Virus record (IMG/VR): IMGVR_UViG_3300033463_000013
Span: 96,001 to 160,000 of that record
Origin: a virus
Taxonomy: Duplodnaviria > Caudoviricetes
Length of the DNA stretch: 64,000 nucleotides
Reading direction: 5' to 3' (one strand)
The first letter of the stretch is position 1; each line of letters opens with the position of its first letter. This document shows positions 2-58,583 of the stretch, piece by piece. The position numbers were made by a program, and so were the translations under genes. The notes under the pieces are model-generated. The model made no database searches. It was not told where the DNA came from and saw only the letters and a program-made list of their open reading frames with translations.

Positions 2-3000
2 GCACAAATTTAGGCATTAATTGATAAATTAGTAGAAATGAAGGCTATTACTGGAGAAAATGCTGATGCTATGCGAGCAATGCTTGAAGGGGCAAATCCT
101 GCACAATTAACTGCGATGCAAGCTACTTTACAAAGTGCTCTGCGTCAAACTGGTAATACCGCTGTTGAAACTGGACAAAAAGTTTAGAATATGGGTAAGA
201 GCTTCTAGACTATTGGTTCAGCTGTTCGTATGCTTTCTAGTATTACTGGATTAAGTAAGGAAGCTAAAGGTAGCATCATGGTTCTTGGTGGAGCTATTAC
301 TGGTCTTGGTGCGGTTATTCAGCTAGTTCATAAAACTAGTAAAGCTGCAGCCGCTTCAAATCCATGGATGGCTATTGCAATGGCAATTGTTGCTGTTGTT
401 AATGGTATTATGATGTTATTTGAAACTCCAGCGCAACGATTAGAACGTTTAAATGAAGAAGCTGATAAATTAAATACTAAAGCTAAAGAAGCTAAAGCGG
501 ATTATAAAACTTTAGATAATACTTCTAAAAAATTAAAGGAATTAGAAGAAAAACGTTATGATAGTGCTGAAGCTACAGAAGAATATTAGACTGCAGTTGA
601 TGAATTAGCGGAAAAGTTCCCTGGCTTAATTGAAGGTTTTGATGAAGCGGGGGAAGTTATTATTAGTACTTCTTCTTTAGAAGATGAGTTGGCCGCGGCT
701 AGAGAAAGAACTGCTGATGCCACTTATAATGCTGCACGCGCTGAACGCGAGGCATTAGAAGAAAAATTAAAGTAGGATGTAGGAAAAATTAAAGCAGGAA
801 ATATAAAAGCTGGCCCTTCCGTAAATGACGCATATGAAAAAGGTACTAGTCTTATGCAGGCCACTGGTGCAACGGTAGAATAGTTTTCATGGTAGTACTA
901 GAAGGATCCGAAGAAGGATACCTGGCAAGAAGCTAGTAATAAATTTGCTTTCTTTGACTCAGACGATCTACGTACTGAAATGTTTACTAATCATGATTAT
1001 GCTAGTTATGATGGTGTATATACAAATATAAGTCTTGGATAGGGCGAGAATTACGTTACTGATTTAATTAATGGTGAATTTGATGAGGACTATGGTATCC
1101 CTGAGAAATATGATAGTTTCTTATCATTTTTACGTGATAGTAGATTTAGAGGTGCAGACGGTAATACTATTGATCTTCCTAAAATTTATAATTTCGTATC
1201 TGCATTAGAAAAAGGAACTTCAAGTTTATATGAGCTATCTGACGCAGAAAGAGAAGCATTAGGAATACAAGAAAGTGAATTAAATTAGTATTCCACTGTT
1301 TCTGAGTGGGCAGAAGCGCATGGAATGAACTATGATTGGCTTTCTTCTGGAAGAGACATCGGCGATGATATGCTTGCTTATTTTAGCGCAGTTGGCTTAA
1401 ATAATAATCAATCAGCTTTTGCATATGAAGATACTAGAAGCTTAGTAGATAATGCTGAATTATTGTCATCATTAAATAATTAGGAATTAATAGAAGGAAC
1501 TAGCAATGATATTGAACTTGTGGCGAAGGCGCGGGATGCCTTTTATAAAGCACGTTAGGAAGACGATTTATCAGCCATGCGCGCAGCGTGGGAAGATTTA
1601 TTAACTTTAGAACGTGCAATTGATCCAGACGATAACGCAATGGCATATCTACGGCTATGGTATGAAGAATTTCATGCCGAATTAGGTGATGTAGGCACTA
1701 TATTAAAAGATGCAACAAGTGATACAAAGTCACTTAGTGGCGCATATAAGAAGGAGATTAGCAGTAAATTTAAGTAGATTTTTGAAGGGGAATAGCGTTT
1801 TTTTGATGATGAATCTGGATTAAGTGGAATTATTACTTCTACTGTATATGACAGATTTACGGAAGAAAAAGAAAGAAATCCTAAATTAAAATTAGATGAA
1901 TGGTTAAGAACTAATGCTTATTCTATGGCTGACAAGTATGGTATTGTTATGGAAAAATTTTGGACTAGTCTTGGAGCGGATGAGCAAGAGTTATTAACTA
2001 CTATGCTTAAAGATACTGATTCTTATGATTTTGAAGATATAGTATAGCAATTTGGTATTCAGCCTGGTACTGAATTGTATACTATGTTAGAAGCATATTA
2101 TAAGAAAATATCTGGTAATATTTAGGAACGTTTAGCTAATAAATTTGAAAATTCTGATTTATTTACCTTGAATGATGAAGGAACTAATCAGGATATGGTG
2201 GCTTTGGGTGAAAAATTTAAAGCTCATGGAAAAACGGCCACAACAACATAGGAAGAACGTTTCTTAAATAAAGTGTATTCTGAAGTTGATACCTTAGCTT
2301 AGGCAGGTTATACACAAAAGGCAGTTGCATATGGAGAGAAAGCTTTAGCCTTACTTGATAGCGTAAATGGTATTACTGATGCAGTTACTAAAAACAAAGT
2401 GTTTGATTTAATTGAGAAAAATGGTATATCAACTATTGAAGGTATTGATGATACTATTAGATCAATTGAAAATGATGAAACAATTGACGCTGAAACAAAG
2501 ACTGCCATGATCACCGCGTTACAACAAACTAAAAAAGATTTAATTACTAATATAGGTTTAGCGTTATAGACTGCCGCAGATAGTTATTTAGAGGCCTGGA
2601 AAACTGATAGTAAAACATTAGGTAAATTAACTAGTGGTCTTGATTTGACCGATGTTGATACTTTAATTCAAAGTGATGCTGGTATTGATATGGGTCTTTC
2701 TATGGATGACTTTATTAGTGATGGTAATAAATTAGTATTAAAAGCTAACCAGGCTGAATTGTATATTAAATCATATTTTGAAGCATAGCGTACTAAGTTA
2801 GGTACTTATCGAGGTCAATTAGAAGCTGTTCTTGGTAAATGGGGTAAGAAAGGTGTAGATGGTAAAATTGATCCTGGTATGTATAATGATCGTATTTTAA
2901 ATCAGGATGCGCAAGCTGAAATCGAATCATTAATTGGTGTTGGTAATTTACAAACCTATGCTAGATGGGATGCAGCAGAACAATACTGGGTTGTTACTAA

Positions 3001-6000
3001 TGCCTAGGGATTAAATGATGCTATTACACAAGGCTATGATAATGCTAATTAGTAGTTAGAATTATATGGCAACTATTTAGATTGGTCTGAAGAATCTATT
3101 ATCAAATCAACCCAATGGAAAGCTGGTAATTATAGTTCATTAAAGAAAATATTTAAATTATCTGATACTGATAACGCAGGATTAGAACGTAATTTAAAAA
3201 CATTATTAAGAAGTGGCAGTGCGGCGTTAGAAGCATATAAAGACACTCCAGATGTAAAGAATGCTGTTACATAGATTCGTAGTGCGCTTTCTACTTTTAT
3301 GTCTGATGCTATTACAAAAGGTATAGATAAAATTGATATTGCTGATTATGAAGGCTTACCAACTTGGATTGTTTCAGATTTTAAGAAGACTGCTTTTAAG
3401 AGTAAATATGAATTTGTATAGAAATATGTTCAATATTTAGGCGATGATGTAGAAGCTATTAATGATATGATTATTTCTGCATTGGAAGCTGATAATGAGC
3501 GTACTTCTGGTGATGTAATTAAAGATCTTAATTTCTTTAGTGAGAGGTAGTTCTCTGCCACTGGTTCTGAACTTAAAACACTAGCAAATAAGTTTGGATT
3601 AAATTTAGCTGACTTATTTGCTCAAGGATATGCTTGGTATGATAAAGAATTGGGTGAATATGTTGTTAATTATCAAGCAATTGCTGCTAGTGGATTATAT
3701 CCAGATTTTGACTTAACTGCGGTTGAAGGTTTCCATGAAACTGTACAAGATAGCATTAATGAATTTTGGAATAAATTAGGTAGTTTAGTTAAAAAAGGTT
3801 TAACAGGATCATTATCTAATACTGAAGTAAAGTAGCTTAGAGAAATGGCAAAATAGACTCATTTTGGAGGAGAGTTAAATTTTGATCAAACTGCAGAAGG
3901 ATTAAGATTAAGTGAACAATCAGCATATGCTTTATATGGTCATTTAAAAAATACTAATTCCTTATAGGCTAATTTAATGTTCAAAGAAATGAAAGATGAC
4001 TTAATTGAAGCTGATGAACATTATTAGTCTATAAGTGCTAATACCGCGAGAATTGCTGTATTAGAGGGAAAAGTTAATACTGCAAAAGTAGTTGGACAAG
4101 GTTATTAGACTCAAGCGGGTAATGTAGATTTAGTTGCTCATGCTACGCATCAAATTACTGGTCAAGAGATGCGCGCTGCTGGTTGGAAGGAATATACTGA
4201 TACTGATTATGCTACACTTGATACTGTTACTTATAGTGGTAAAGAACATGGCACAAATGTAGTATTAAATATTACTCCAATTACTAATGATGGTACTGAA
4301 ATATTAAGTCCTGAAGATTTAGATGCCTATGCAGCGAGTTTATTAGAAGGCGGCGGCACTGCGGATGAGATTATGCTTCGTGATACTAAGCATTTAGTTA
4401 TGGGAGCTTGGGATGTTGATGTATCTAATAGTGACGCATTAGCAGACGGTCTTGCGCGGGCTGGAGAAGAAGCTAATAGATTGCATGAAGAATCTGATTT
4501 GATTGCTCAAAATATAGATTCATGGGATGCTCCTAATGATGCTCGTATTAAATAGTATGAACAAGAATTAGCTCTGGCAAAAGAAATTGAGCAAGTACGT
4601 TCTACTACTGAAGATTCTTCATTTGATTTTATGTCAAATAAGATTCCAGGTGCACAAAATAATCCAATTAAGTATTTTGAAAGCTGGGGCAAGGCTTGGA
4701 AAACATTAAAAGAAAGTTTTAAATCTACAACTGATAAGGGTATGATTGGTTATCAAGATTTCTATAATATTATGACAGAAATGGGTAATATTGCTAAGAA
4801 AAGTGGTGTTCCAATTAAACTTGGTTCAGAAATGTTTGTAGAAGATGCTGAGAGTGCGTCACGATTAATTGAGAAGGGCGCGAAATTTTTAACAGTTGCA
4901 TCTGATGGTTCTATTAAAGTAGATTTAAGTCAATTTGGTATTGATTTTGAAACTGGCGCCGCGGATATGAAAGACGGAGTTAATGCTGGTATTAAAGCCA
5001 TGGCTAAATCTTAGGTAGAAATGCTCGATGGTATGATTAAATTAATGGAAACTATCGTAGCAATGGAAAAATTAAAATCTGTAGATGTAAATGCAGATAA
5101 TAAAATTGACCTAGGAGAAATGTTTACATCTGTAGAGTTCAATACAGATGGTTCTATTGCGGCCCTTGGTGCATTTAAACAAGAGTGGTTAGATGCAAAA
5201 AATGATTTATTGGAGTTCCTTGATTCAGAAGATGGCGCAGATGTAAAAGCTGCAATGCAAAATACTAAAATTACATTTAATGGTATTACTCAATCCATGT
5301 ATGATTTATTCGATATTTCTGATGAAGAGTTAAATAACATGGATACTGCAGCTAAAGAGCGTTACCATGCTATTATGAGTGCTTTCTATAATGCAGCAAT
5401 GTCTGGTGATTATAGTAATGAAAGTATTATGCAATCTATTAAAGATGTATTAATTAGTACTGGATATGAAGGCGACATTGATATTGGTGATTTACATATT
5501 ACTATACATTAGGGAGTAGCTCTTGAACGTGATAGCGATAACAATTATGTAATTGGTGATTATAAAACTCCAGATCCAGATTAGGCTGTTCGAGCGGCCG
5601 CTTTATAGAATGCTGGTGTTGAGGAAATTACTGATTCTGCAAGCCATGTAGATTTTGGTACCGAAGTTGAACTATCTGGTGAATTAAAAGTTGGTAAAAA
5701 TCGCATTGCAGTGGGTTAGACTGATCAAGGAGATACAATTTATCATTCTAATACAACCGGTGGTAATTATGATTCAATGAGTGAATTAATTGCCGCGGAA
5801 TTTAAATTTAAACAAGATAATAATGAAACCGCGGCTGAAACTTTACCAGAATTTGAAATTGAAGCTGGTTATAAAATTATTCCTAAAATTACTGATGAAG
5901 GTGCAACAGTCACTAAAAATCAATTAAAGGCTTTAATTGGTAAATCTGCAGCCGATTTACAAAATGAATGGGGTTCAACCGAAAAAGAACATATTAAATT

Positions 6001-9000
6001 TAAAGCTAAATATGGTATTGAATGGGTAGAAGGTTCTACAGATGCTGATTTAGACGCATTAAGAGAAGCTAGCGGATTAGAAAGTAAAGTAGTAGATATT
6101 ACTGCCAATGTTGATGCTGGCGGTACTCATGAAAAACTTGTTGAAGCTATTGAATCTGGTAGTGCAGAAGTAAAAGTTAAGGTTACTTTAGATACTGAAG
6201 GCGCAGATCAATCTATTCTTAATTTACTTACTGGTAGCGCTAATCCTGGTGATGGGGGACAATCTCCAATTACATTCCCAGAAGGTTCGATAACTCCAGA
6301 CATTCCCGAAACGTTACCTGTCGAATCCGCTCCAAAATTAGAATATAAAGGTACTGATAAGATTGTACTTGATATTGGTGAGGCACCTGTTGAAGCTACT
6401 GTTAAAGGTGTAACTCCTGTTTTACCAGAAGGTACTACTGAATATAAATTATCAACAACCATACCTCAAATTAAAGGTGAAGCGATAGAGTTAGCAATTA
6501 CACCAGGTACTGTTGGTATTGGCAGCGATAATATTACATTGACTGATAAAGTATCAACTACTGGTACTACTGATTACATTAGTTTGAGTACTGATCCAGA
6601 TATTACAGCACAACTAGTCGGAGATGGCGATGATAATACTGTTGATGTAGGTTCAATTACTGGGGATATTGCTGGTACTGCAACTAATTTAATAATTAAT
6701 TCTGTGAGTTTTACACAATTAGGCGAAGACGCAGACGTAGAAATTTCTGATATGATTCCAGAAATCACTGGTGAAGCTACTACTTTAAAGATTACTGCAT
6801 AGAATACTGAGGTTGAAGGTGGTTTATCAAATACAGAAATTACTGCTATGCTAGAAGGCACAACCGTTAAAGTTACAGTTGATAAAGGTACTTCTATTAC
6901 AGATTTAGAAGCCGTTTAGACTGCGGCGGATGATACAGATGAAAAAGAACCAGAAGTCAGTGTTTCTACTGATGGAGAGGATGCGAAGTCAACGTTAAAT
7001 GACTTAATTACTTTAGCTCAACAATTAGCTGATATTGATCCATCTATTCTTATTACTGCTAGTGATCATGCTTCTAGTTTTATTTCAAATATTATTTCAA
7101 AATTAAGAGAATTAGATAACAAAACATTTACTGCAACAGTAAAAGCTCAAGTACAATCTGAGGGTGGCGGCAATGCTAGCGGTACTGTTGGTATGGCTAA
7201 AGCTGGCGGCACTTTAATGGGTGAACTTGGTCCAGAAATGGTTGTATCTAATGGACGATATTTTGTTGTAGGACAAAATGGACCAGAAATGGTAAATCTT
7301 GCTAGTGATGCTATAGTATTTAATCATTTATAGACTAAATCACTGCTTGCAAAAGGAATGTCTTCTACTCGTGGATAGGCCGTCACAAATGAACGTAATG
7401 CCGTTGCTTTTGCTACAGGTAATATCAATGGCGGACCTGCGATGGCAAGTGCTTCTTCAGTACTTGCTACTTTGAAGCAATTAAAAGCTCAGTGGGAAGC
7501 ATTAGCAAAACTTGATGTAGGCTCTCTCGCCGGCGCCGGAGGCGGTGGCGGTGGAGGCGGCGGTGGCGGAAATGACCAACAAGCCCGCGCTGCATGGATT
7601 ACTCAAGTTGAGCGTTGGTATAATTTAATGCAAAAAATTGCTCAATGCGAGAAAGATATTACTCATGAAGAAACACTACGTACAAAGCTTAATTCTGACT
7701 TTAATAAAAATGGTAAAGCATATTATGATAGTCAAATTAGAAGTTTAAAAGTTCTTCAAGATTAGATGATTGCTCAAGAAGAATTAAATATTTCTAAAAA
7801 AGAATACTTTAATCAACGTCGTGAGCAATTAAATACTGCAAATGGTCCGTTTAATCAGCTTTATTCGTTTGATGAAAATGGTTAGTTAAAGTATAATGAT
7901 AATTATCAATTTACCACTTCTGAAGGAAAACAACTAACTGGTGGATTTGCTTTCTTATCTGAATTAATGAAAGTAGACGAAATGGGTACACCAAAATATT
8001 CTTCTGAAGAATAGTATAATATGCTAGTGCAAGCTGGATTTAAAGATTTCATGCAATATGACACTTCTGGTAAAGAAATATTAAAGCCAGAAGATGAAAA
8101 GGGAGATATGAGTTCTTTCTATAGTTCTTCCATTCAAGCATTATTTGATCATATGAATGCATAGAAAGATGAAATGTAGAATTTACATGATACTATTGAA
8201 GAAGGAGAAAATAGTTTACTAGAATTACAAACTTAGTAGAATGAAATTCTAAAAGAAATTCGTGATAACTAGATGGCTGTTGAAGATGCTGTTCTTGAGG
8301 CAATTATTGATCAGCGTCAGCGCGCGATTGATAAATTAAGTGATGAACGTTCTGCTTTAGAAAAATCTACTTCTAAATATATTGAAGGTTTATCAGATGC
8401 ACTTAATAAAGAACGTGATATGTATGAACGTAATGAAAGTTCTGAAGAACTTAATAAAATGCGTAGATAGCTAGCTATTCTACAGCGTTCTGGTGGTTCA
8501 GGTAGTTAGATTAGTTCATTATAGACTTCTATCAGAACTAAAGAAAAAGATACATATTTTGAAGAACAATAGCGTTAGATTGATGCTATTCAAGAAGCAT
8601 CTGACTTACAACTTGAAAGACTAGATGCCCAAATTGAATTAATGACCGAAACTCTTGAATATGAAAAAGACCATGGGATGCTCTGGGAAGCGGTTTATCA
8701 AAAGATGGCTGAAACTCCAGAAGAAATTACAGCTTTCATAATGGAAGAAAATAGTAAATATTGGTCGATGTCTCCATTAAAGAGTTCTGAGGAAATGAAT
8801 AATATTTTATTCTAGTCTGAAGCTTGGACTGCTTTTAGAGACAGTCAAAACGAAGCTTTGAATAAGGCAAATGCCGCGTTAGCAGATGAGGGTACAACTA
8901 TTGCACAAGCCGTTTATGGTGCGGATAACTCCTGGTCTATCTTTACTACTGCAATGGGGAACTTATATGGTGATCAATGGGCTAAGTTAGCTTCTGATTA

Positions 9001-9808
9001 TAAGCCAATATTTGGCCAGAATATGGCGCAAACCGGAGATATCACTAAAGCTACTACTGATTTAACTACAAAGATAAGTTAGGATCTTGGAACATTAGGA
9101 GATAAATTAGTAAGTGCATTAAGTAAACCTGATCCAGTCAGTGTATCTCCTAATACTGATACTGATAATAATTCTTCTACATCGTCTAATACACCCGCAA
9201 CTCCAACTAAAAAGACCACTCCTCCTAAAAATAATACTATAACTGTTTATGAAGTAACAGTAAATGGTAAAACATAGACCTTTACCAATGAATCAGATGC
9301 ACAACGATATCGGTCAGCGGCTGCGGCTGGATATGGCAGTGCTCTTAGTGCTGGTTATTCATAGAGTGGAAAATCTCCAGCTGAAATTAAAAAATTAGCA
9401 GATGCATATATTGCGTCTAAAGTTTCAGGTGTAAAAAAAGTAACAAAGAAAAAAGCTAGTGGCGGTTATGTTAATCATGGTGTATACGAATTAGGTGAAT
9501 TAGGTACTGAAACAGTATTAACTGCAGGTTAGACTAAAATTTTACGTGATAATATTTTATCAGATAGACCAAATTCATTGTTATCATTACTTAAGAGTTA
9601 TAATGAAAATTATAATCATATTAATGATTATACTTAGAGTATGTCTAATGATGATGACAAATCTATTAATATTGAAAATGTATCCGTTAATATGAATATT
9701 GAAGAAATTGCAAATGATTATGACGCACAACGTGCTGGTGAGCAAGCAATGGCTAAGATAATTGAAATTGCACGCAAAACTAGCGCAAAGAATAGCATAA
9801 GGAGGTAA
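2..9808 (+). CDS. Tail tape-measure protein, 5'-truncated, >3268 aa with TAG read as Gln
   Basis: Ten standard-code ORF fragments (230, 1577, 3650, 4169, 4631, 5021, 5777, 7442, 8273, 8858) share one frame and are separated by TAG (>50 by manual count); the frame ends at TAA 9806-9808. Ala/Leu/Glu-rich helical sequence, hydrophobic segment (NPWMAIAMAIVAVVNG), two TMP-type motifs (AGGTLMGELGPEMV, ASGGYVNHGVYELGELGTETV), upstream of tail genes. Confidence 0.88.
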
Positions 9809-9815
9809 AAGGAGT

Positions 9816-11798
9816 ATGCCAACTATAAATTATATTGAGGGTTATGAACCTATAACAACTCGTGAAAAACGAGGACAAGTATATATGGCGACTCATAAAG
9901 GGGAGAATTATCTCCCCTTTATGAATCGTTCTTTTATTAGTTTTTCTTTTGGAGAACGAGATGGTACACCTGTTAATATTGAAGATTTTAATTTAATTGC
10001 TACAACAGATGGTGATAGAATTAAAAGAAACGGATTTTCAGATTTTGAAGATTTGGTTACTTCTTATGATATTCTTGATGGTCAATTTTATTGGGGCACA
10101 TACTATAAAAATAATTCATTGTCATTAACCTTATCTACAGATGGTATATCCCAAGAACAGTTAGATGATTTTTTACATTGGTTTTAGGCTGGAAAAATTC
10201 GTGAATTAGTTTTAGCGGAGCATCCTAATCGCGCGGTGATGGCTCGTGTGTCATCACCGCCGGGCCTATCTTTATTACCATTCGAATTACCAGCTACAGT
10301 TACAATTGCTGGTAAAACATATAAGACTAGTACCACATTATGGAAAGGTGATATTTCATTAGAATTCGTTATGGATGAGCCTTTTTGGTACTCTAAAGTT
10401 AATATATTTGGAAAAAGAGATACTAATGGTGTATATCATGATACATGGACGGACGCCAATGGAAATTTAATTAATGTATTGAATGAAAATGTTAATCAAG
10501 ATGTTATGAAAATTGTTTTAGAAGATGGTATTCCAATTAGCAGTATGCTTACATCTTCTATGATTTTAGGTAATAATATCTATGCTAATTTAGATGACGG
10601 GTATGATGGCATGATCGCGCGTGATACTATTTATGTTACATTTACGCGTGATAATGATAATATTATTGTTTATTTAGGTACTGGTGATTATATTAGACAT
10701 GAGTTAATCACATTTGTAGTTGATGAGCAATTACCAATAGAATCTATTGCGGATTATTTACCGAGTATTAATAAAGCTACTACAAGTATTGCTCCTGTAT
10801 ATAGTATTTATAATGTTCCTGAGATTACTTATACGAGTTTATATGATACAATAAATATGGCTTTAAATACTTATGGAGAAGAATCATATGCATATGCTGA
10901 TATGGACACTACAGAATAGTGTATTATTGCAGAAATATTACAAGATGGTTCAGTATATGGAGCATTGATTTCTGGTCCGCATATGTCAGAATCTACTGGT
11001 ATATTAAATTTAACTCCTGGAGAATATGGATATTTTTACTATTGTGGAACTGCACCATCGCCTGTAGAATTAACATTTACATTAACTCCAAAAATGAGTG
11101 AGAACTATATCTCGATTCCTCAAAATAGTTATAAACATGAAACAAATGAATTTCCATATAATACTATTACTATTGAAAGTATTCATAAACAGGAATTAAG
11201 ATTCACCACTCCTGGAATTTATTCTGCTTATAATAAAGTAATTGAAATTTTCAAAAATATTCAGACAGCATAGGACTGGGTAGCTGTGCGTGAAGATATA
11301 CGTTTAGATGTGCATCATCCGGCGGTACGCGCATGGGCAAATAAAGTTATTGATTATTTAGATAAAAATGCTACGGGTACCATTTAGGAAACTGATAAAA
11401 TTGTTGCCCAAGCTTGTATGACTTATATGTTTAAAACGTATGAAACAGGAGCGGAAAATAATTTACTATCTGGTACATATACTTTTAATAGTAAAACTGG
11501 AAAAGCTACTGGAAAAATTAAGTATCGTATACCATAGGTTGAATTACCAGAAGATTTTAATGGATGGGTAACTTATGGTGAAATTATGAATGAAAATAAT
11601 AATGTAAAAGAAGAAGATATTGGCGATATGGTTAAATCTAACTACCTTATTATAAGAGATAGAAATTATCCGGATAAAATTAATGGTAATATTAATAAAT
11701 GGACAGAAAATTCCAAAGATGCATCTCATCGTATTTATGATGATGTAGATGGCGGCTTATAGAATGTAATTATTAAATATAAAAATTTATATCTGTAA
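9816..11798 (+). CDS. Distal tail (Dit-like) protein, 660 aa with TAG=Gln
   Basis: Fragments 9816, 10236 and 10965 are in one frame joined across TAGs; AAGGAG RBS; ends TAA 11796-11798; directly after the TMP; GDISLEFVMDEPFWY resembles siphophage tail-component motifs. Confidence 0.7.
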
Positions 11799-11822
11799 TG
11801 AGGTAAAAGGAGGAGATATGAT

Positions 11823-14800
11823 ATGGTACAAGATCAGTATATACGACCATATGAAATCTCTATCTGGACACTTTAGGACGAGTTTATAACCGTCCTAAAG
11901 TGGTCCGAAATAGAGAATAAAGGACAAATTCAAAATGGAGAGGTTGAATTAATCGATGATGGCACCGAAAAATTATCTTTTTCTGTTCCATTGTGGTATT
12001 ATTCTGATGGAATAAAAATCAAAAATCCATTATGGATTACAGTAAATAATAAAACAATCGTGCCAAATATGCACAAAATTAAATTAATTTTTAATAAAAA
12101 AACCGAAGATGAAAAAGTTTTTGAATTTTTAATTACTGAAATTAATGAGTCTCATAATAAAGATGAGATTATTTATGATATATCTTGTGAGGGTTTAGCT
12201 TTTCATGAATTAGGTAAAATTGGTTATAAAATTAGTTTAATGCCTGATGATTTCTTAAATGAATGGGAAGCATGGTTTAAAAATGGATAGATTAACGATG
12301 CTCCAGTATAGAATTTACAATATTGGAATGATCGAGTATTTAAATATACTGATGTTTCTGGTGAAGTGCGTTGGAAATATAATTGGACTTATGAAGTACA
12401 TATGGATTGGTCTTCTTTTAGTTATAGTAGTGAACGTGATTCATCTACTGTATATGAAGAAGAATATGTTTCCGCTTGGGACACAAATGATAATTTTTTA
12501 ACTTTTCCTAAATAGGTTGAATAGTTTAAGGAAAAGTGGCGCGCGGTAGAAATTGAAGAAAGTAATATTTATAATATTACATAGACTATTGCTGAAACAT
12601 TTGGAGTTTTCTGTAAATATGAATATGAATATGACGATAATTATCATATTATTGGAAGAAAAGTAATTTATTATAATAATTTTATTTCTGATTCTTATGG
12701 TCATATTGATTTAACATATCCTTATAGTTCTTCATCTATTACACGCACGGCTGATCATACAGAACTAGTTACTAAATTATTTGTACGTCCTATTGATAGT
12801 GACACTTCTGAATCTAATTTAATTACTATTATGAATGTGGATGCAAATAGAAGCAGAGAAGATTATCTATTAAATTTTGATTATTTACATGAAGTGGAGA
12901 CTATTACTGATGAATAGTATGAAGCAGTTCGCACATTTGAAGATGTTATGCGCATGTATAACAATCAATTATTAACACTAGAGACATAGATTGCGGTCTT
13001 ATAGAATAGTTGTATTACAGAAGAAGCAAATATAACTTTATATACAAATGCTCTTAACTTAGATAATGAACGTTGGAATAATGCAAAAGCTTTGCGCGCG
13101 CAGTTAACTGGTGGTACGGATAATATTACAATTAACGATGCATCTCCGGAAATGCTTCTTTTAAAACCAGATGGCACATAGGCTAATATGTATTATGTAA
13201 CAATTTCTTTAGAAGGAGTTATACCTAGTACTGTTGTATTATATAAAAATATAGACTATACAAAGATACCTGGCGGCCTTGTTTCGGAACGACTAACTGG
13301 TATATGCACCGGTGGAAAATATGAATATGATGAATTTGGAAATCTAAATAAAATAAGTAATTTATATATTAAAGATTCTACTATTAAGCGCTTATATATG
13401 ACATGTGAATACCGCCCAGAATTATATTATGATAATGTAGTTCGTACATGGGAAATTCGTCGATATAAAGATTAGTAGGCGTTATAGGAAGCAAAAAATC
13501 GTTTACTTGAATATCGTATGTTATTAAATGGCGGAGATGTAGATTACGCTTGTGTTGATGAAGCAATTACTGATTATGCTGTTTCTGGTAATGGAGTTCG
13601 TGTTGATCAATGTCATGTTGAATACGCACGGTTAGATGAAGGCCATGGATATTTATCTACATATAACGGTGTTTTAAAAGATAAATATGAGCATACTGTT
13701 GAATTTGAACGCATGATGGGTCCTGCATTACGAGAGGGTTATTGGCAACCTGATACATATAATGATTATGGAGATAAATTTCTTGATCGATTTGAAATTG
13801 ATTTTACTCAAGAAAATGGTATAAACGGGACTTCTAAATTTGCAACCTTTATATGGGATACTGAAAATTTTGATGATGAATTAACATTATTTTATGAGTT
13901 GGGTGCATAGCAAGATATACAATATTATTTAATAGTAGATTTAAGTAATGCTTTAGAGTATATTAAGGGTAATTTAAATAATTTAAGCTTTATTTATTAT
14001 GATGAAAATATTAAGACAACAAATGAATTAGAATAGGCTCGTAGAAATTTTACTATTGATTCTTTATGTCAATTTGCTTATGTTTATCATAATGTAAGAA
14101 AGAAATATATTCCTGTATTGGTATTAACTGGCTGTGCATCTTTACGAGACAGCTAGATTACATTTATTAAGAATGCTCCTGCAAGTTTCAAACCATTTTT
14201 AGGAACAATTGAATCTTAGGTCAATTCTACTACATCTGCAATAACAACTGTAGTTAATTCTTTATATGATAATCTTGTATTTATTGACCCAAATGATTTA
14301 AAGGTTAATCAAGCCGGAAAGGCGTGTTTGTGTTATCCTCGTATACGAATTAATTCTTTATAGATGAAAAATACTGAAGATGAAGTATTATTATCTTCAA
14401 ACGGAACTAATCTTAAAATGTTTGATGATTTTTATGTGTTAGTTAGAACAGACCAGAGTAATATTGATGATTCTTATTATATTACAATTAAACCTAAACA
14501 TCTAATTAAAAATGCTACTACCGATTCTGTGATAGATTTAAGTTACTCTATATCTAATGCAGATATATCTATTTATCTTGATGCAATATAGGTGATGAAA
14601 GAAAATTCAAAACCAAAAGTATCTTATAGTATTGATTTAAATGTCTTAAATAAAGACTTTATTCATACAGCTTATAATAAATTAAATCGTATAGTACATA
14701 TTAATGATTTTGAATTATAGTTTGAGGATGTTAATGGCTATATTTCTTCGATAAGATTAAATTTAGATCGACCTTGGGAAGATACAGTAGAAATTAAAAA

Positions 14801-46332: not shown

Positions 46333-46363
46333 AGTTTACACTTCCTTTCTATTTTCTATTTAT

Positions 46364-46599: not shown

Positions 46600-47857
46600 T
46601 CTTTTTCTCCTTTAAGATAAGGTTAAGTACAATACCTACAATCATCGCGAGTGCAGTAGTACCAATACTTACAACTCCAAAGTTACAAACTGCGCCGGAA
46701 ACACCGAGTGTTAGTACTGCCGCGATAATAGTAACATTCTTATTATTATTCAAATCAATATTACTATCCTTAATTGTACGAATACCAGATAGAGTAATGT
46801 AACCGTAGAGAATAGCTGCGCAGCCACCAAAAATGGCGCTTGGAATACTTACAAGGAAGGCTTGAAGAGGACCAATAAATGCGGCAATACCCATAATAAT
46901 TGCAGCAAGTGTAATTACATATTTAGAACAAATCTTACTAAAACCAGTGGTTCCGACGCTCTCACCATAACTTGTATTAGGCATAGCGCCAATTAGAGTA
47001 CCGAGAGCAGTAGCAGCGCCATCACCCATTAGAGTATATCCAAGGCCTGGCTTCTGTGTTAAGTCAGTTCCAATTACAGCACTCAATGCTTTATGGTCTG
47101 ACGTATGCTCACAAATCGTAACAAGACTTAGTGGTAGGAATAGTAGAAGAATTTGCGGTAGATAGCCCCAATCCCAAGAACCAAAATGTAGGAAAGCAAA
47201 ATCTGGTAGCTGGAATAGTTTCACTCCATTAAATACGCTAAAGTCAATAATTTTTACACCACATACTGTTAGCAATGCTGCGAATGCATACACAATTAGA
47301 ATTGCTACAAGGAAAGGTAGATTCTTAATAAAGCCTTTTCCATAATGCGAAATAAGAGCAGTAATAATAAGTGTTAGCATACCTAATCCAAATCCAATCA
47401 GACTATACTGTCCGTTAATCTGGAAGTATGTAGGAATAAAGGTTGCTAGATTAAGACCAATAACAGCAACGATTGGCCCAATTACAACTGGCGGTAAAAC
47501 CTTATTAATCCAAGCAGTACCAAAATGATTGATTGCTAAGCCAACAATAAAATATACAAGACATACAATCAAACCACCGATAAATACTGCCAAATAGTTC
47601 GGTGCAGCTCCAAGTGCTAATGCTCCAAGTACGGCCGCGACAAATGCTCCAGAAGAACTAATGAACATTGGTGATTGGCCTTTGGTGAATAGCTGATAGA
47701 GCAATGTGCCTAAGGCAGCTCCAAGCATAGCGGGCGCGATTGGCACACCACAAATTTGTGGAATTAGTACGGTAGCAACGAAACAGGCAATAACCTGTTG
47801 AAGTGCGGCTACGCATAGCCGCTTAAAAGGGAGTTTGTCGTTAATATTATAAAGCAT
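46592..47857 (-). CDS. Uracil/xanthine permease (NCS2 family, UraA/PyrP-like)
   Basis: 12-14 hydrophobic helices; ISSSGAF, PPVVIGP, EHTSDH, PNTSYGESVG NCS2 signature. Confidence 0.9.
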   Translation of the reverse strand: MLYNINDKLPFKRLCVAALQQVIACFVATVLIPQICGVPIAPAMLGAALGTLLYQLFTKGQSPMFISSSGAFVAAVLGALALGAAPNYLAVFIGGLIVCLVYFIVGLAINHFGTAWINKVLPPVVIGPIVAVIGLNLATFIPTYFQINGQYSLIGFGLGMLTLIITALISHYGKGFIKNLPFLVAILIVYAFAALLTVCGVKIIDFSVFNGVKLFQLPDFAFLHFGSWDWGYLPQILLLFLPLSLVTICEHTSDHKALSAVIGTDLTQKPGLGYTLMGDGAATALGTLIGAMPNTSYGESVGTTGFSKICSKYVITLAAIIMGIAAFIGPLQAFLVSIPSAIFGGCAAILYGYITLSGIRTIKDSNIDLNNNKNVTIIAAVLTLGVSGAVCNFGVVSIGTTALAMIVGIVLNLILKEKKNV

Positions 47858-47858
47858 A

Positions 47859-48377
47859 TTATTTTGTCTCCTTTAAATTATTAATTTGGGATTGTAATTC
47901 TTGCATTTTATTATTGATTGCATTTGTAACACATGATGGAATATTTTCCCAAGTTTTAGTAATAGAATTCCAGTAATCACTACCACCAGTATTTAATCCA
48001 GAATTACCTGTATAAATATCATTATCGACTTTAACATTATAGGCAGTTATATTATCTGATTTACAAGTATTACTATCAGATGTGCATACCGAACTTGGCG
48101 CTTTCCATATAGGACCACTTTCTGGATGAATTCTAAAAGTGTCTGGACTACAGGTTACTTCTTTCCACCACTCTGGTTTATATGTCCAATCTGAAGTGAT
48201 TGTCCAATTATTTCCATTACAATCGCATTGTCTTACCCAAGGCGCATTAATACGCTTACAACGTGGACATTCCCATCCTTTTTCTGAGTTATAATCTGGA
48301 TAATATTTCCATGTATAGTTAGTACTAGTTGAAGTTCCAGTAGTTGAATCTCCAACCTAAACTTTATCTGTTGTCAT
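47859..48377 (-). CDS. Hypothetical Cys/Trp/Thr-rich protein, 172 aa (TAG at codon 7)
   Basis: Not in the ORF track; AGGAGG RBS; MTTDKVQVGDS...GWECPRCKRINAPWVRQCDC; TAA at 47859; fills the gap. Confidence 0.7.
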
Positions 48378-48422
48378 ATTATTCCTCCTTGCTTTACTAA
48401 AGTCATATTCATTTAACATAAA

Positions 48423-48981: not shown

Positions 48982-49857
48982 TTAATAATTAGTTACTAAT
49001 ACTTCAATAGTTGGTTCAGTTGTTTTTGTTTTATTATATACTGCTTTAGAATAATCAGAAAATATATCATGTACATTATATTTTTCTGACCATTCAATTA
49101 AAGCTACATTTTCTTTTCCTTTATGGGCTACTATATTAGATACGGCCCATTTAAGTCCTTGCTCATTTGCTTTATCTAGGAAAGCATATAAATCTATATC
49201 ATCTTGTATATCCCATTTACTATTAATTGCTCGAGGCCCTGTATTATATTGAGCATCAGAAATTAAATATGGTGGGTCTACATATAAAAAATCATTAGAA
49301 TCAGTAAATTTACTTATATCAAAATTTCTAAAGTCTATAGAAGAAAATTGAATGCCTTGAATAGCTGCGTGCATCGCTCTTGTATTTGCGCGCTAAGTTA
49401 AATTAAAATCTGAATGATTTTGACCAAAACTACTATTATATTCATGATTTATATTAAAACTTATTTTATTATTAAATGAAAATCTAGATAATACAAATAA
49501 ATCTAATGGGGTATGATATTCTGGATTCGTATTATATAAATCTCTATATTTTAAAAATCCTTCAGCATTAAATCTTGTCAGCTGAAACTCTTTAATACGA
49601 GCATTTATAAACTCCATGATTTCATCAATAGTTTTATTCTAAAATGCTTTATAGATATCAATAATATTAGTATTAATATCATTGGCATATTTATAAGTTG
49701 CTATAGTATTAATAGATACATCAGTACCACCACAAAATAAATCAATGAAATTATTTATATTAGTGGGAAATAAAGGATATAACTATTTTAGTAGTTTATA
49801 TTTATTTCCTACATAATTCATTGGACTTTTTATAAAAGCAATCTTATTCTTCGTCAT
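48982..49857 (-). CDS. Dam/D12-class N6-adenine DNA methyltransferase, 291 aa (3 in-frame TAG)
   Basis: With TAG=Gln: IKSPMNYVGNKYKLLKQLYPLFP...FIDLFCGG...ANDIN...FLYVDPPY...EVLVTNY; TAGs at 49783, 49639 and 49393. Confidence 0.88.
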
Positions 49858-50122
49858 TCTCATCATCATCCGATAGTAAGAATTCAAGAGCATCTGCAAA
49901 TGTATTACCACGGCTCTTAGTATCTTGTACAGGCTTTGGACGGAAATAGTTATTATATACATAACTTTTTACCATTGCAAACATACTGGAAGAACTATCG
50001 CGTGGATGTGATTCTACATATTCTCTAAGTTTCTTTTTATCTTCTTTAGACATTTTTGCGATGAAGTCTTCGACAACTTCACGAGTTAAATCATTAAATT
50101 TAAGTGGCTGTTGATTTTCCAT
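49844..50122 (-). CDS. Hypothetical protein
   Basis: ATG at 50122 with AGGAG RBS downstream of a promoter. Confidence 0.65.
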   Translation of the reverse strand: MENQQPLKFNDLTREVVEDFIAKMSKEDKKKLREYVESHPRDSSSSMFAMVKSYVYNNYFRPKPVQDTKSRGNTFADALEFLLSDDDENDEE

Positions 50123-50413: not shown

Positions 50414-51667
50414 TTAAATTGGTGGCCTTATTTTATCACAAAGTGCAGCAACTGGGCCACGCTCAGATTTTAATAACTTAACCGCACCAAATAATGGGTC
50501 TCCAGCTAGACGGTCTAACATTGCTCTTATACCATTATTTTTTTCAAATTTTCTATGGTCAATTTGGGCAACATCACCGCAGAAGATAATTTCACTATCC
50601 TTTTCAATACGGCTCATTAAGAACGTGACTAACTTATCATTCATATTTTCACATTCATCACATAATACTATAGAATTAACAATTGAGCGCCCACGCATAT
50701 GTGATAATGGATAAATTTCTATTATTCCATCATCAATTAATTGGTCCAGCATTTCTTGTCCACCTAAGTGGTCAGCTAACGGCGCGCCCCAAATTGACAT
50801 TTTATCACGCATATCTCCAGGTAAAAAGCCAATGTCATTTGTATCAGCAACAACTATATTATTACGGACAAATACTAATTTAGAATAGGCACCTTTATGT
50901 ACTTGTTCTAGAGCGTAGGATAATGCAATTAAAGTTTTTCCGCTGCCCCAAGCACTTGTTAATAGTTTTACTTTAATATCCTAATTCTAAAGTAAATGAA
51001 AAGCCATTTTCTATTCTAGATTTCTTGGTCTAATAGTTTCTTGAATATATGGATTTTTTATTTCTTTATATTTTAAAGGTCCATACTAATGTCCGTCCCA
51101 AAATAATACATCTTTTAGTTCGGTTTTATCGAATATTTCAGCAAATTCATTTGTTTTACAACCTAAACAATTGATTTTAGGATCGGCATACAGTAATGTC
51201 ATTTCTTTTTCATTAGGATAATATTTACCCCAGCCTGCCCATTCTTCTTCTTTACGAAAAGCTAGTTCTTCACCCATAGGATACACAGGGTCTACATGAG
51301 GTAATTGTTGTGCAAATAAATATTGTAAAGCATCGCTAGTTAAAAATATAACATCTTTACTCTATTCAATTGCCATAGCTTCTGCCGCAAGTAATATTCT
51401 ATGATCATTAATATTACTTAAAAAACGATATTTTTTTAATAGTTTATCAATAACTTTATTATCTGGCATAATTACGTGTAGCTTATGGCAATTCATGATT
51501 GCACGAACGGCTTCACGAGCCATATATTTTATGCTTTTATCCTCTTCATGTTCTTTAATATATTCTAATTCTGAAACTGTTAATGGACTAATTGCGATAT
51601 CTACTTCTGAATTTATTAATCCACTCTAGTGTAAAAGAGCAGATGTGTCTGCAAAATGTGTAATCAT
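50414..51667 (-). CDS. phoH: PIN-domain PhoH family ATPase, 417 aa (6 in-frame TAG)
   Basis: With TAG=Gln: PIN domain (FADTSAL, TVSELE, NDHRIL, LTSD) plus PhoH (IRPRNLEQ, AWGSGKT, IGFLPG, HMRGRS, DECEN, CGDVAQID). Confidence 0.88.
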
Positions 51668-52281
51668 TATTCATCAACTCCGATGATTTTGTCAATCAGG
51701 TTCTTTTCCTTCATTTTATCTGCGAATAAGAACCACTGATGCCTGGCGTGCTTATCATATTCTTCAGCTGTCAAATCGGTATTATCTAAAAAGAATTGAC
51801 GAATTTTTTCATCAATTTCATTATTAAATGCCATAATATCAGCTGCAGTTTTCGATTCTGCTGCGGCAAGAGCGACATAACCATCATGAATTAGAACATA
51901 CGAACAAGGATAACAAGAACGAATTATATTTTCATTTTTTCCACCAGCAGCTAATAATACAGTTGCCATGGAACAAGCATATCCTAATACTTGAATATTT
52001 AATGGCTTAGAATATTGTGCTAAATAATATGCTAAAAAGAATCCATCAGAAACTGAACCGCCGCTACTATTAAGAATTAATGTAACTGGCTCATTAGAAT
52101 CATCTTGTTCAAATGCGCGAAGTGGCAAATAAACATATTCTACAATATGTTCTGATATATCATCATTTAATATAATTGTCCTATGGTTTAATAACTGGTC
52201 ATAATACTAATACATTACAGGACTAAGTTCTGTAGCATTAAGTTTTTCCCAAATACCGGAAAGTAGGTCTTCTAAATCCAT
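51667..52281 (-). CDS. ClpP-like protease, 204 aa (TAG at codon 25)
   Basis: RTIILNDDI, LILNSSGGSV, YACSMA (Ser), VLIHD (His); AAGGAGG RBS at the extended start. Confidence 0.85.
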
Positions 52282-52307
52282 AAGAACCTCCTTCAGCGCG
52301 AATGCGC

Positions 52308-53438
52308 TTAATTGAATATTTTCGCTAAAGTACAATCTTTTGGATCAATATCATCTTTTCTAATTCGCTTTAAAAGCGGATGGCGAATTGAAATTCCTTC
52401 ACCATTAGAGTCTGCTTTAGCTTCACTTACCATCATTCCACTAATAGAAACGGGAACTCCGATCCAATCTTCTAGATGAAGCTTTAAATCATTTCTAAAA
52501 CTATCTGTTAAACCACTAACTTTACATAGCGGAATGAGTTGGCCTTCTTTATTATAAACGCCGACTTGAATCGCAGCGGGCCATCCATTATAGTAATTTT
52601 TGGTTACAGGAAGATAGGCTTTACCTTGTTGATAATCACCAAAATATTCGCCTTCTACTAATTCACCAGTTCTTTGATTCTCCCATAGAGTCCAAGAACT
52701 CATGTCTTTACCAGTATAAATTTTTTCTCCTGCAACGGTCCCCATAATAACACAATCAATTTCAGATGAAATTTCTTGTTTTACTTTGACAGTATCCCAG
52801 GCATGAGGACCACGTTTCCCTGGCTCATAATGAGAATCCTTTCGGTAGCAGACAGTACCTTCACCGCCTGCTGCGAAGATTTCACCCATTTTGTCAAAGA
52901 ATTTATTATCCATCTCATAGTAATTCACTCCTTCAACTAGTATAGAATTAATACGCTTGACTACTTGAGGAATGAGTTGAATACGTTTTTCAAAATCCGT
53001 ATTCATGTAATCTTTTCCATCCAACGCGAGCACATCAAATATGCGCCACCTTAGAGGATTGTCTTTTTGACGCGCTTGCGCCTTAGGAGTCAAACAACGT
53101 AATATAGAACCAACATCTTTATCAATTGCGCCAGGAAGATATATTTCTCCTAGTATTACTGTGGTTCCATTAGTAAAAGCATTACAAACATCTTGCCAAA
53201 AGAAAACCTTGTCTTGAATCTCGCCATATGTTTTAGTTACTGTAGAGATTCCACGAGTTTGTAACGCTTGCCTTTCAGCAGTAATTACCGCGCGAGACCA
53301 ATTACCATCTGTCTTTAATCCAAATAGATAATTACCGCTATCAATTAATTGTTCAAGTTTTAATTTCTTAGCTTCTGGGGTCATAGTAGAACTACAAGCC
53401 CAATATTTCATAGGTTCACTAGTAAAATAATCTATCAT
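52308..53438 (-). CDS. ATP-dependent DNA ligase
   Basis: KTDGNW (KxDG), LGEIY, IFDVL, EGTVC, VKVK, KVSGL, IRHP. Confidence 0.88.
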   Translation of the reverse strand: MIDYFTSEPMKYWACSSTMTPEAKKLKLEQLIDSGNYLFGLKTDGNWSRAVITAERQALQTRGISTVTKTYGEIQDKVFFWQDVCNAFTNGTTVILGEIYLPGAIDKDVGSILRCLTPKAQARQKDNPLRWRIFDVLALDGKDYMNTDFEKRIQLIPQVVKRINSILVEGVNYYEMDNKFFDKMGEIFAAGGEGTVCYRKDSHYEPGKRGPHAWDTVKVKQEISSEIDCVIMGTVAGEKIYTGKDMSSWTLWENQRTGELVEGEYFGDYQQGKAYLPVTKNYYNGWPAAIQVGVYNKEGQLIPLCKVSGLTDSFRNDLKLHLEDWIGVPVSISGMMVSEAKADSNGEGISIRHPLLKRIRKDDIDPKDCTLAKIFN

Positions 53439-55072: not shown

Positions 55073-55101
55073 ATTATAATATAATTTAAGAAAAAAGTCA
55101 A
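55073..55101 (-). promoter_or_regulatory. sigmaA-type promoter
   Basis: TTGACT-17 bp-TATAAT. Confidence 0.75.
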
Positions 55102-55628
55102 CTATTTGATTCAGGGAGGGTCTTTCTTTCTTCCAAGGCTTTGATGTCCTTATAATATTTTTCACCTTGCCCGTTACCGCCAAGCTAATCATGATAGATA
55201 TGATATATATGATCAATTTCCATCATTTCTGTATCAGTTACGTATCCGCGCTCGGTTAATACTTTATTCCAACGATATAAAGTATCAAATAATTCCATCT
55301 GTGTTCCATTACCAATAATTTCTAATCGGCCATTTATATGATTTATTTCTTTTTCTAAACCACAAACTTTAGCATTCATACCTTCAACGGTATCACTTAA
55401 ATCATGAACTTTTTCCTTAATGTTACCCATTGAAGTTTCAAGGTTATTAACTTTACTATTCATATTATCTACTGTAGAGGCTAAAGTTTTAATTCCTTTA
55501 TTAATTTCATTAATGCGTAAGCAATTATCTTTTGATCCGCTTAGAAATTCATCCATCTTAATTTCGCGCTCAATACGTTTACGGTGGCGTTCTCCGAGTT
55601 TATTAAGGTAGTCAATAAATTTAGACAT
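55098..55628 (-). CDS. Coiled-coil phage protein with C-terminal YHxxLGGNG motif, 176 aa (one TAG)
   Basis: Reading through the TAG at 55185-55187 gives IYHDQLGGNGQGEKYYKDIKAL, ending TGA 55098; AAGGAGGTG RBS. Confidence 0.7.
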
Positions 55629-55685: not shown

Positions 55686-58583
55686 TTACATTTCAACATT
55701 TCCTAGCGTTTTATTAATACTATTCATAATATCCATTAATCCAGCTAAAAATAAAATTTTTAATTGGACACCTTGAGATACACGAATACCAGTAGTTAAC
55801 CATGCATTTCTATCAGCTGATTGAATATGCTCTTTATATGGTCTATTAGGAACTAACTCTTCTGAAGCTGGGTTGATGATAGTAATACCTGCACCAATTT
55901 TTTGTGGAATTTTCTATATATTAGTAATAACATCTTGCTATATAGAATCTAATGTACGCTTAAGTACGGTAGAACCAGTTACATATATACCATTTACATT
56001 ATATAAATGTAAAATTTTTCTACTATTGTGTTTTCCAGTCTAAATAATTTTATCTGATAAATTATCAATGATTTTTGCTTCTACACCACCCTCATCAAAT
56101 AGTGCGAAAGCCATTAGTGATCCTAAATATTGTTCTATACTATCTTTGTTCTTTTCTCCAACCATAGATTCTGGGAAACAGTTAATAATAGCTGATTTTA
56201 ACCAAATCATATCACTTGCAGGAATTTCTAATCCCGCAGATGAAAAAATATCAGAAATATTAGATAATTGCTAATCTAAGTGACCACCAATATTACCACC
56301 AACAAAACCTAATTGATTGACATAATCATTATGAGATTTTACAGTAGTGGATACATAGAATGATGATTGTAGTACATTAAGAAATTCAGTACGATATTTT
56401 TCAATCTCTTTTTTACCGCTTGCATCATCGGTATTTTCTTTTAAATAATTTATATATTTATTAACGGCTTCTTCTAATTTATTATAAGCTATTTTTATAT
56501 TTTCATCTAAGTCTTTTCCATCTTTATCTAAATTTATTCTATTTAATATATCGGTATCTAGCACAGTATCCATTTTTGAATATCGTTGACTATCTTTATG
56601 TAATGAATCGGCCTATTTATCTATTACTTTTTGATATTCATGTAATAGATTTATTTGAGCTTCTTGAATTTTTGCTTCCATTTCATTTATTACTGTATCA
56701 TCCACAAGAGCATATACAAGTGCTTTATTTCGAACTTTACTTTTATCAATCAATATATGGACACTATCATTTTTTCCACGCGTTTGGTTCCACGTAATTG
56801 CTCCACGATTAGATTGACGAAACTATAATGTTGTCATTAATTCTGCAAGCGCGGGTCCATCTATAGATATATTTAATGAACGTAATTCCTATCTTACTTC
56901 AGAAATTAATCTATCTTCAGATATACCAAAATCGCTTGATTTTAATGCAGTAATAATATTTTGACGTAAAATTTTTGATGCTCGCGATTTTAAAGTCTAT
57001 AAAGTAGAGGTTAATGTCTATGCATTAAAAGATTTTAATGCAAAAGAATCATAACGATTATCCTATTTTAATGCTACAATTAGAGAGTCCTAGTCTATTT
57101 GTACTTTACCATTAACAACCATAATTTTAATAGTCGCTTTTGCATTTTTTGAAAGCTTGATTTCTTTCTAAAAATCTATTTCTGTTTTATGTAATTTTTT
57201 TAATTTAGCATCATATTGTTCTTGAAATTGATTCACTTTTTTTCTAATTTTTTCTATTTCATGTACTAATGAAACAATATTATCTGTACGTTCTAAAATT
57301 GTTTCATCAGTAGGAGCATTTGATTTAGCCATGGCTTGAATTAAATATGATTCAGATTTTTTAGGATTTTTCTATATTGTACTTTTTTCTTCTTCTATTA
57401 ATTTAGATACATAAGAAAATAATTCTATAGCTGATTTTTTTTCTAATTCTGCAATAGAAGTAATATCATTCATTAATTCTGGTGTTTTTACATTGCGTCC
57501 AAATGTAGTATCTAAATTAGTAATATTTAATTCAGTTGTCATATCCAATACACCGTTATCATCTATATTACGCATAATATTTTTTTCTATTTGCTTAACT
57601 AATTCTTCAGAAATTGCTTGATTCATAGTCAATTTTAAATCATGTATACCATAATCAATAATGACCTAAATTATTGATTCTTGTACTTCATCATTTAATA
57701 ATTTAAAATTTCCATTAACTGGATACTATTCTTCTATTTTTTTTGCTAATTTATTTATAAAATTACTATCAGACGAAACTTTGGCAATCATCTATTCGAT
57801 CCAAGCCGCGAAGTGTTTAGAAATAGTTTGATTAGCTATACTTTGAATAGATTTTCCTCCGTAAAGAATTGCCCTTCCTGTCTTTTTATCTATACGACTT
57901 AACTATTTTTTTTCTGTATATTCGACTAAAAATTTTCTTTGCAGCCTATCTTGAGCATTTTGTCTCATTATTTCCTATAATTCATTAGATTTACCTTTAC
58001 TATACCCAACACCCGCTGCCTAATTTCCTCTACCCTTAATAATATGTTCTACTTGTTTCTAGACAGCTTCAACACGTTTCATTTCTGTATTAAGAATAGT
58101 CTTCATATTATCTTGTCCTTGTAGAATTAAATTACAAAGACTATTAATTTTATCTTTAGGTACAATTCCACTTTCTGAACTAGTATTAATTGTATCTTCT
58201 AAATCTTTAATTTCTTTAATTTTTTCACGCTCTTCTTTAGTAAAATTCTTACGTAAATCTTTTATCATAAGATCAAAATACTATTTTTCATTTGCATATT
58301 CATATGCTATAGCTTTCTATAAGAAAGCTACTATTTGTGACATTTTATTTAAAAAATAACTGTCGTGTTCATCTTGTGTCATACCAGGAAGTACTGAATG
58401 ACTTACCGCATCCATAGCCGCAGTTGCAGCACGCTCACCAGCCAAGTCTACATTCCATGCGCTTTTTGTGTTTTTAGATTTAGAATCGGCCCAAGCATAT
58501 TTAGTTAGACTTTTAAAATAAACATAATCTGGTGACCATCCTTCGTAGAAAGCCAAGTTACCAGCCTAAGCAAAGGTTGCCAT
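55686..58583 (-). CDS. Large hypothetical protein, about 965 aa, TAG-rich
   Basis: Fragments 58317-58556, 58059-58268, 57372-57632 and 56271-56573 are in one frame separated by TAGs; GGAGGTG RBS before ATG 58583; TAA at 55686. Not every intervening codon was checked. Confidence 0.75.

Follow-up and report, generated by a model that had tools for sequence, protein, structure and literature searches.

TAG as a probable glutamine codon in a 181-kb SPbeta-like siphovirus whose suppressor tRNA bears a glutamine-type anticodon loop in its variable arm

We analyzed a stretch of 64,000 nucleotides (hereinafter the window) that spans positions 96001-160000 of the 181,407-bp IMG/VR record IMGVR_UViG_3300033463_000013, a tailed-phage genome classed as complete with direct terminal repeats. 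In this phage TAG is very probably not a terminator but a glutamine codon, read by a tRNA(CUA) that the phage itself encodes. By its sequence relationships the source phage is an SPbeta-like siphovirus of 181 kb with a GC content of about 33%, and its host is probably a member of the Bacillota living in an animal gut. Its suppressor tRNA has a long variable arm, the hairpin loop of which reproduces the anticodon loop of a glutamine tRNA. The contribution of this arm to the loading of the tRNA, and that of TAG to the timing of gene expression, are less certain than the identity of the codon.

The reading frames provide the first line of evidence. When TAG alone is read through, positions 2..17057 of the + strand resolve into just three open reading frames (ORFs), namely 2..9808 (open at its 5' end), 9816..11798 and 11823..17057, which comprise 3268, 660 and 1744 codons with 60, 6 and 32 in-frame TAGs, respectively. 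Under table 11 the same three ORFs break into 101 TAG-bounded pieces; the first-pass annotation of the window, which spoke of 17 kb collapsing from about 20 fragments into three genes, gave a fair account of the larger ones (36 of at least 60 amino acids and 16 of at least 100). Nine genes on the minus strand, up to position 58583, likewise need TAG to be read through, and it is indeed at this position that the window's last gene with TAG ends. In frame 0 of the eight main TAG-bearing window genes there are 147 TAGs and not a single TAA or TGA, while the +1 and +2 frames of these genes contain hundreds of each of the three stops; hence, TAA and TGA do not interrupt the frames as TAG does. The comparison of coding density under tables 15 and 11 points the same way across the whole genome: the coverage in a simple greedy ORF cover rises from 0.695 with table 11 to 0.915 with TAG read through, as against 0.745 with TGA read through and 0.849 with TAA read through, the last value being inflated because the DNA is AT-rich. 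All 218 ORFs obtained by reading through TAG end in TAA (143) or TGA (75), which upholds the earlier statement on gene ends, although in at most five short ORFs a TAG lies within a few codons of the end and might be the true stop.

In-frame TAGs number 519 in the whole genome and are spread over 99 of the 218 ORFs, in which TAG makes up 36% of the glutamine codons. The base following them resembles that following a sense codon (T in 20%), as opposed to the base after real TAA stops (T in 52%). In the genes with a single TAG and known relatives, the homologues mostly align across the TAG. The amino acid composition of the TAG-rich as compared to the TAG-free genes was uninformative, except for a fall in CAG.

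The second line of evidence comes from the codons that relatives use at these sites. We placed an X at every TAG of the query and tabulated the codons opposite it in 37 IMG/VR loci found with PhoH and in two whole related genomes, whereby 369 of 501 TAG sites could be aligned. Glutamine accounts for 31.5% of the residues opposite TAG: CAA for 21.0% of the codons against a background of 2.2% (9.4x) and CAG for 6.8% against 0.9% (7.6x). As CAA is two changes away from TAG, this enrichment does not stem from mutational closeness. TAG itself stands opposite TAG in 11.8% of the aligned cells against a background of 0.6%, while serine, leucine and tyrosine codons are at or below background over the 369 aligned sites. 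A substitution-profile log-likelihood favors glutamine (-2082) over the next best residue, glutamate (-2631), by about 550 log units.

Individual families concur with this. In PhoH, glutamine is found at site 219 in 120 of 120 full-length homologues and at site 227 in 119 of 120; it is the most frequent residue at three of the other TAG sites and second to glutamate at one. The solved structure of a Corynebacterium PhoH (PDB 3B85) also has glutamine at site 219. Since gene callers could have translated TAG as glutamine, we examined the DNA under the homologue sites and found CAA or CAG, thereby ruling out that the glutamines in the PhoH database homologues are products of such translation. At site 43 of the ClpP-like protease, the relatives have CAA in 18 cases, CAG in six and TAG in seven, and at all three TAG sites of the Dam-type methyltransferase the family relatives have CAA or CAG. 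The glutamine assignment proposed in the first-pass annotation thus finds support in the codons of relatives as well as in a solved structure. The four motifs quoted there are exact (PhoH RPRNLE-TAG-K; Dam NKYKLLK-TAG-LYPLFP; RuvC GIENIQL-TAG; GIY-YIG FFKT-TAG-EFGYN), and its calls of RuvC, GIY-YIG, D12 methylase and PIN-PhoH families are borne out by profile matches.

The third line of evidence is the translation equipment of the phage. While the 64-kb window contains no tRNA gene, the genome has 30 of them in two clusters, genome 1806-5410 and 168338-177578 (-). A single tRNA(CUA) was recovered at genome 5318-5410 (-) using ARAGORN, and it scores 53.3 bits with the Rfam tRNA model. Accordingly, the expectation that a suppressor tRNA or a release-factor modulation would be encoded outside the window is correct with respect to the tRNA but not the release factor, for no RF-1 domain is present in the genome; a glutaminyl-tRNA synthetase (GlnRS), likewise sought in the rest of the genome, is missing too, with no GlnRS or glutamyl-tRNA synthetase (GluRS) catalytic domain detected in it. 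The tRNA(CUA) is 93 nucleotides (nt) long and has a variable region of 23 nt (a 20-nt insert relative to the Rfam model). Its acceptor stem is identical to that of the phage's own tRNA-Gln(UUG), with an A1.C72 mismatch, G73 and an encoded CCA, and its D stem is of 4 bp. The hairpin of the variable arm displays a 7-nt loop, CUCUGAA, which is the anticodon loop of tRNA-Gln(CUG), while the actual anticodon loop of the tRNA reads CUCUAAA. Running ARAGORN on the whole genomes of two relatives (G001 and G002) revealed counterparts of 88 and 87 nt, although a BLAST search of five related genomes with the suppressor tRNA had found almost nothing. The suppressor gene adjoins a tRNA-Gly(UCC) gene and is located shortly downstream of the tail genes on the minus strand. 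A TAG-free 114-aa gene and the tRNA(CUA) are preceded, at genome 5886-5858, by a sigma-70-like site with 11 of 12 matches, which is no more than a hint, given that shuffled sequence contains sites of this kind at least as often.

The arm is not a peculiarity of this phage. A pattern scan of IMG/VR that left the arm unconstrained retrieved at least 116 stretches with at least 62 unique long tRNA(CUA). Among the matches listed, to which the counts of tRNA(CUA) given here refer, a 7-nt arm loop with U-YUG is present in 49 of the 62 (CUG in 42 and UUG in seven), and these loops are closed by 2-5 pairs forming 16 different stems. In an alignment of 40 sequences all three pairs of the hairpin show compensatory changes on both sides, and 95.7% of the cells are paired. 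Every one of the 41 sequences with a glutamine-type acceptor end possesses the U-YUG arm; the 13 lacking it all have A73 and mostly G1:C72. An amber suppressor tRNA whose variable-arm hairpin copies the glutamine anticodon loop is likewise seen at L139:1519-1611 and L107:1226-1316. A second kind of long tRNA(CUA), with G1:C72, A73, a class-II D arm and no YUG arm, occurs on contigs of about 130-413 kb (L111, L122, L154, L202, L203), and in the phages possessing it TAG may stand for leucine or tyrosine instead of glutamine. The same scan with the anticodon UCA yielded 51 unique long tRNAs, of which 38 have a U-CCA-R arm, i.e. the tryptophan triplet, and none a YUG arm. These CCA-arm tRNAs (L227, L242, L251, L263 and 34 others, on viral contigs) have an A1:U72, G73 acceptor end, and we read the remaining long tRNA(UCA) as selenocysteine tRNAs. 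Our literature searches for a long-arm suppressor tRNA found no paper.

Classical amber suppressors help place this design. The supE-type tRNA-Gln(CUA) and su+7, a tRNA-Trp with a CUA anticodon that is loaded with glutamine in Escherichia coli, have variable loops of 4-5 nt. The phage tRNA(CUA) shares with them the CUA anticodon and a glutamine-type acceptor end (a weak 1:72 pair, G73 and G10), and its anticodon arm is close to the tRNA-Trp type. Unlike their short loop, its 23-nt variable region contains a conserved hairpin that copies the glutamine anticodon loop.

The genes bearing TAG are not a random sample of the genome. Within the window they are the three + strand giants, RuvC, GIY-YIG, Dam, PhoH, the ClpP-like protease, a 965-aa protein and three small genes. 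The TAG-free genes of the window include, beyond most of the replication block, a ligase, dNMP kinase, RNase H, dUTPase, phosphatase and RNA ligase. Outside the window the terminase (6 TAGs), portal (9 TAGs) and tail proteins are TAG-bearing. The published late-gene pattern is thus recovered, with the structural genes recoded and the replication core devoid of TAG, albeit with exceptions in both directions and with no lysis gene among those identified. TAG-free genes end in TAA or TGA and are read alike with or without suppression of TAG. The TAG-bearing or TAG-free state is conserved among orthologues in the complete genomes G001 (Fisher 1.9e-14; rho 0.79) and G002 (Fisher 3.5e-6), which are also recoded and each have a long tRNA(CUA).

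From these observations we draw a scheme in which host ribosomes would stop at TAG until the tRNA(CUA) has accumulated. Because ribosomes would stall at TAG, the production of the terminase, portal, tape measure, tail proteins, two nucleases, Dam and PhoH would be delayed or limited. A host enzyme would load the tRNA(CUA) with glutamine, and the variable arm would restore the glutamine anticodon signal that is lost with the CUA anticodon. Here we propose, tentatively and with doubt slightly outweighing belief, that decoding has been split from identity: the CUA arm would read UAG, while the mini anticodon hairpin (YU-YUG-AR) would show a glutamine anticodon to the host GlnRS, to GluRS plus amidotransferase or to a glutamine-specific modification enzyme, such that the glutamine identity is kept.

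Several points weigh against one or another part of this scheme. First, T4 Dam has glutamate, isoleucine and lysine at the three TAG sites rather than glutamine; hence, for Dam the claim that glutamine is to be expected at these sites is confined to the family relatives. Second, we infer the timing role from gene functions only, and genes that are probably abundantly expressed late are free of TAG, while some in the replication block are rich in it. Third, a role of the arm in loading is uncertain and geometrically awkward, since GlnRS recognizes the anticodon at the distal end of the tRNA and comes in from the side facing away from the variable region. Fourth, the long tRNA sequences are mutually related rather than independent, and Fisher values on them overstate the evidence.

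The second of these points is at the heart of the strongest rival explanation, which accepts TAG as a sense codon but dispenses with a late-gene timer. Under it, TAG would be tolerated where low or slow output suffices and purged from genes that need high or early output; it may also serve mainly to guard against expression in a wrong cell or by a competing phage. It is favored by the TAG-free genes within the otherwise TAG-rich late module, namely three that follow the portal gene and one for a 352-aa virion structural protein (genome 81154-84210 and 88061-89119, +), which may encode the most abundant virion proteins, as also by the TAG-rich nucleases, Dam and PhoH within the replication block. 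Together these two sets of genes imply that timing alone does not explain the pattern. The modest conservation of TAG at the level of sites, 11.8% of aligned cells, is also in line with it. On the other hand, TAG is present in the terminase and portal as well as in the tape measure and tail genes, matching the published late-gene pattern, and the strong conservation at the level of genes fits either reading. On balance we consider this explanation rather unlikely.

That the host itself reads TAG as glutamine, with the phage merely matching it, is very improbable: about half of the genes lack any TAG, among them those of polymerase and NrdD with their roughly 2,800 codons, the phage has a tRNA(CUA) of its own, and published surveys predict standard-code hosts (10.1101/2021.08.26.457843). 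Even less credence can be given to a reading as serine, leucine or tyrosine. The tRNA(CUA) does have a class-II look, with its 93 nt, its long variable arm and a G73 like that of the supD-type tRNA-Ser(CUA), and some plausibility comes from the other type of long tRNA(CUA), that of very large phage contigs, with its G1:C72, A73 and class-II D arm. However, a class-II suppressor body is ruled out by the 4-bp D stem, the G73, the acceptor stem shared with the phage's tRNA-Gln and the lack of any enrichment of these residues opposite TAG; further, the arm loop is that of a glutamine anticodon, and the likelihood for serine lies about 830 log units below that for glutamine. Lastly, pseudogenes or errors of assembly or sequencing are a practically negligible explanation, given that TAG alone, and never TAA or TGA, interrupts the frames, that TAG recurs in the same genes of two further complete genomes and of numerous contigs, and that essential genes such as the terminase and portal are among them.

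Reassignment of TAG to glutamine is itself already well described, and the source phage adds another member to the group. Such ‘code 15’ phages are known from gut microbiomes (10.1101/2021.08.26.457843), the recoding has proteomic proof in crAss-like phages (PMC9523058), and NCBI has a taxon named ‘Caudoviricetes code 15 clade’, while phAss-1 (GenBank OQ749652) represents a proposed Phassvirus group (PMC10607447). With the code-15 phages of Borges et al. the source phage shares TAG in structural genes, variable TAG in replication genes, a tRNA(CUA) of its own (a frequent but not indispensable trait of code-15 phages) without a synthetase and a predicted standard-code host of the Firmicutes type. 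Unlike those and the crAss-like phages, it has an SPbeta-like terminase and a DnaE-type polymerase; moreover, some Lak and Agate genomes have RF2, whereas this phage does not.

Among published code-15 phages, phAss-1 is the nearest relative. Both are siphoviruses that read TAG as glutamine, possess a very long tape measure and numerous tRNAs, and lack a synthetase. One of the three tRNA(CUA) of phAss-1 is a 91-nt homologue whose anticodon arm, arm loop and T arm are the same as in the tRNA(CUA) of the source phage. They differ in genome size (181 kb in the source phage vs 136 kb), in the number of suppressors (one vs three) and in the length of the tape measure (5227 vs 3149 aa), and their large terminase subunits (TerL) are 33.7% identical at the protein level, which falls short of genus-level similarity. 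The paper on phAss-1 does not mention the long arm (PMC10607447).

Among named phages, the nearest relatives are the SPbeta-like Bacillus phages, Geobacillus virus E3 and Lactococcus phage 949, with values of 29-35% for the terminase and 36% for the polymerase, the best GenBank phage matches of the latter being SPbeta-like (36%). They resemble the source phage in being large siphoviruses whose tape measures are long; their deposited annotations have whole terminase and polymerase genes, and the likeness is family-level at best. The TerL matches listed by organism are to phages of Bacillus, Lactococcus, Enterococcus, Clostridioides and similar siphoviruses, with no named crAss-like phage among them. 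A crAss-like origin, first suggested by the giant ORFs, is ruled out by the relatives of the terminase and polymerase and by the tape-measure domain. With respect to the host, a search of bacterial genomes with NrdD gave its nearest matches in contigs of metagenome-assembled genomes (MAGs) of Bacilli, Oscillospiraceae and Clostridia from herbivore and human guts, a mixed set of which some are perhaps phage. In two of the contigs, from water-deer rumen ‘Bacilli’ MAGs (L337:2001-5206 and L339:2001-5392), the DNA of the NrdD homologue is about 1 kb longer than the protein needs, a sign that the gene may be split or contain an intron or an intein.

The window opens with the last 3268 codons of the 5227-aa tape measure gene, which is open only with TAG read through. 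The whole ORF extends over genome 90125..105808 with 144 TAGs in all, and shows a PF10145 (PhageMin_Tail) match at aa 457-668 (E 6e-27); in two relatives its counterparts measure 5351 and 5623 aa. With the usual scaling of 0.15 nm per residue for tape measures, the protein would correspond to a tail of close to 0.8 micrometres. The 660-aa gene after it (9816..11798) has no family match and probably codes for a tail-tip protein; its counterpart in G001 is 37% identical and has 9 TAGs. The 1744-aa gene (11823..17057), also without a family match, has homologous stretches in G001 and G002 and probably codes for a tail or baseplate protein. No tandem repeats were found in these giant genes.

The genes described next, save two small ORFs, lie on the minus strand. 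A RuvC-like Holliday junction resolvase of 250 aa with 10 TAGs (17474..18226; PF02075, phrog_827), for which a sequence search gave no match to a solved structure, has 8 TAGs in G001 and 2 in G002. A GIY-YIG endonuclease of 318 aa with 7 TAGs (19629..20585; PF01541, phrog_314) has 11 and 9 in the same relatives. The replication block that follows (20629..47857) encodes, by PHROG matches, NrdD, a DnaE-like polymerase, RecJ, primase, DnaB, Sak4 and both the A and B subunits of topoisomerase II; it has 0 in-frame TAGs over thousands of codons, and is TAG-free in G001 too. The exceptions are 24140..25225, with one TAG across which homologues align, and 29229..29669, with one at codon 4. Inside the block are two small + strand ORFs (42843-43280 and 46018-46446), at most putative genes, with two TAGs each and one aligned counterpart each in the relatives.

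Beyond the block lies a gene for a 186-aa protein (47859..48419) with one TAG at codon 21, a site where TAG also occurs in 14 related contigs. It is followed by the Dam-type (D12) adenine methyltransferase (48982..49962; 326 aa, 3 TAGs; PF02086, E 4.5e-27), the PIN-PhoH ATPase (50414..51667; 417 aa, 6 TAGs; PF02562, PF13638) and the ClpP-like protease (51667..52335; 222 aa, 1 TAG; PF00574). A 176-aa coiled-coil protein (55098..55628), with only weak matches to coiled-coil families, has one TAG at codon 148, across which seven homologues align, and the 965-aa protein without an assigned function (55686..58583) has 23 TAGs, as does its G001 counterpart. The remainder of the window (58652..64000) consists of TAG-free genes, among them the phosphatase and an Rnl2-type RNA ligase.

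Finally, the recoding matters mainly for annotation: table 11 makes the genome look 30% non-coding, and the terminase, the portal and the 5227-aa tape measure appear shattered. The tRNA bears on a different question, for the means by which host enzymes place the right amino acid on stop-reading tRNAs is left open in published surveys (10.1101/2021.08.26.457843). The triplet in the arm tracks the assigned amino acid, YUG with the CUA anticodon and CCA with UCA, and this makes the loading question testable at the bench. The arm could also offer a natural design for suppressor tRNAs. If the proposed separation of decoding from identity is true, then the parallel CCA arm in the UGA suppressors would point to a general solution that phages have found for the reassignment of stop codons.

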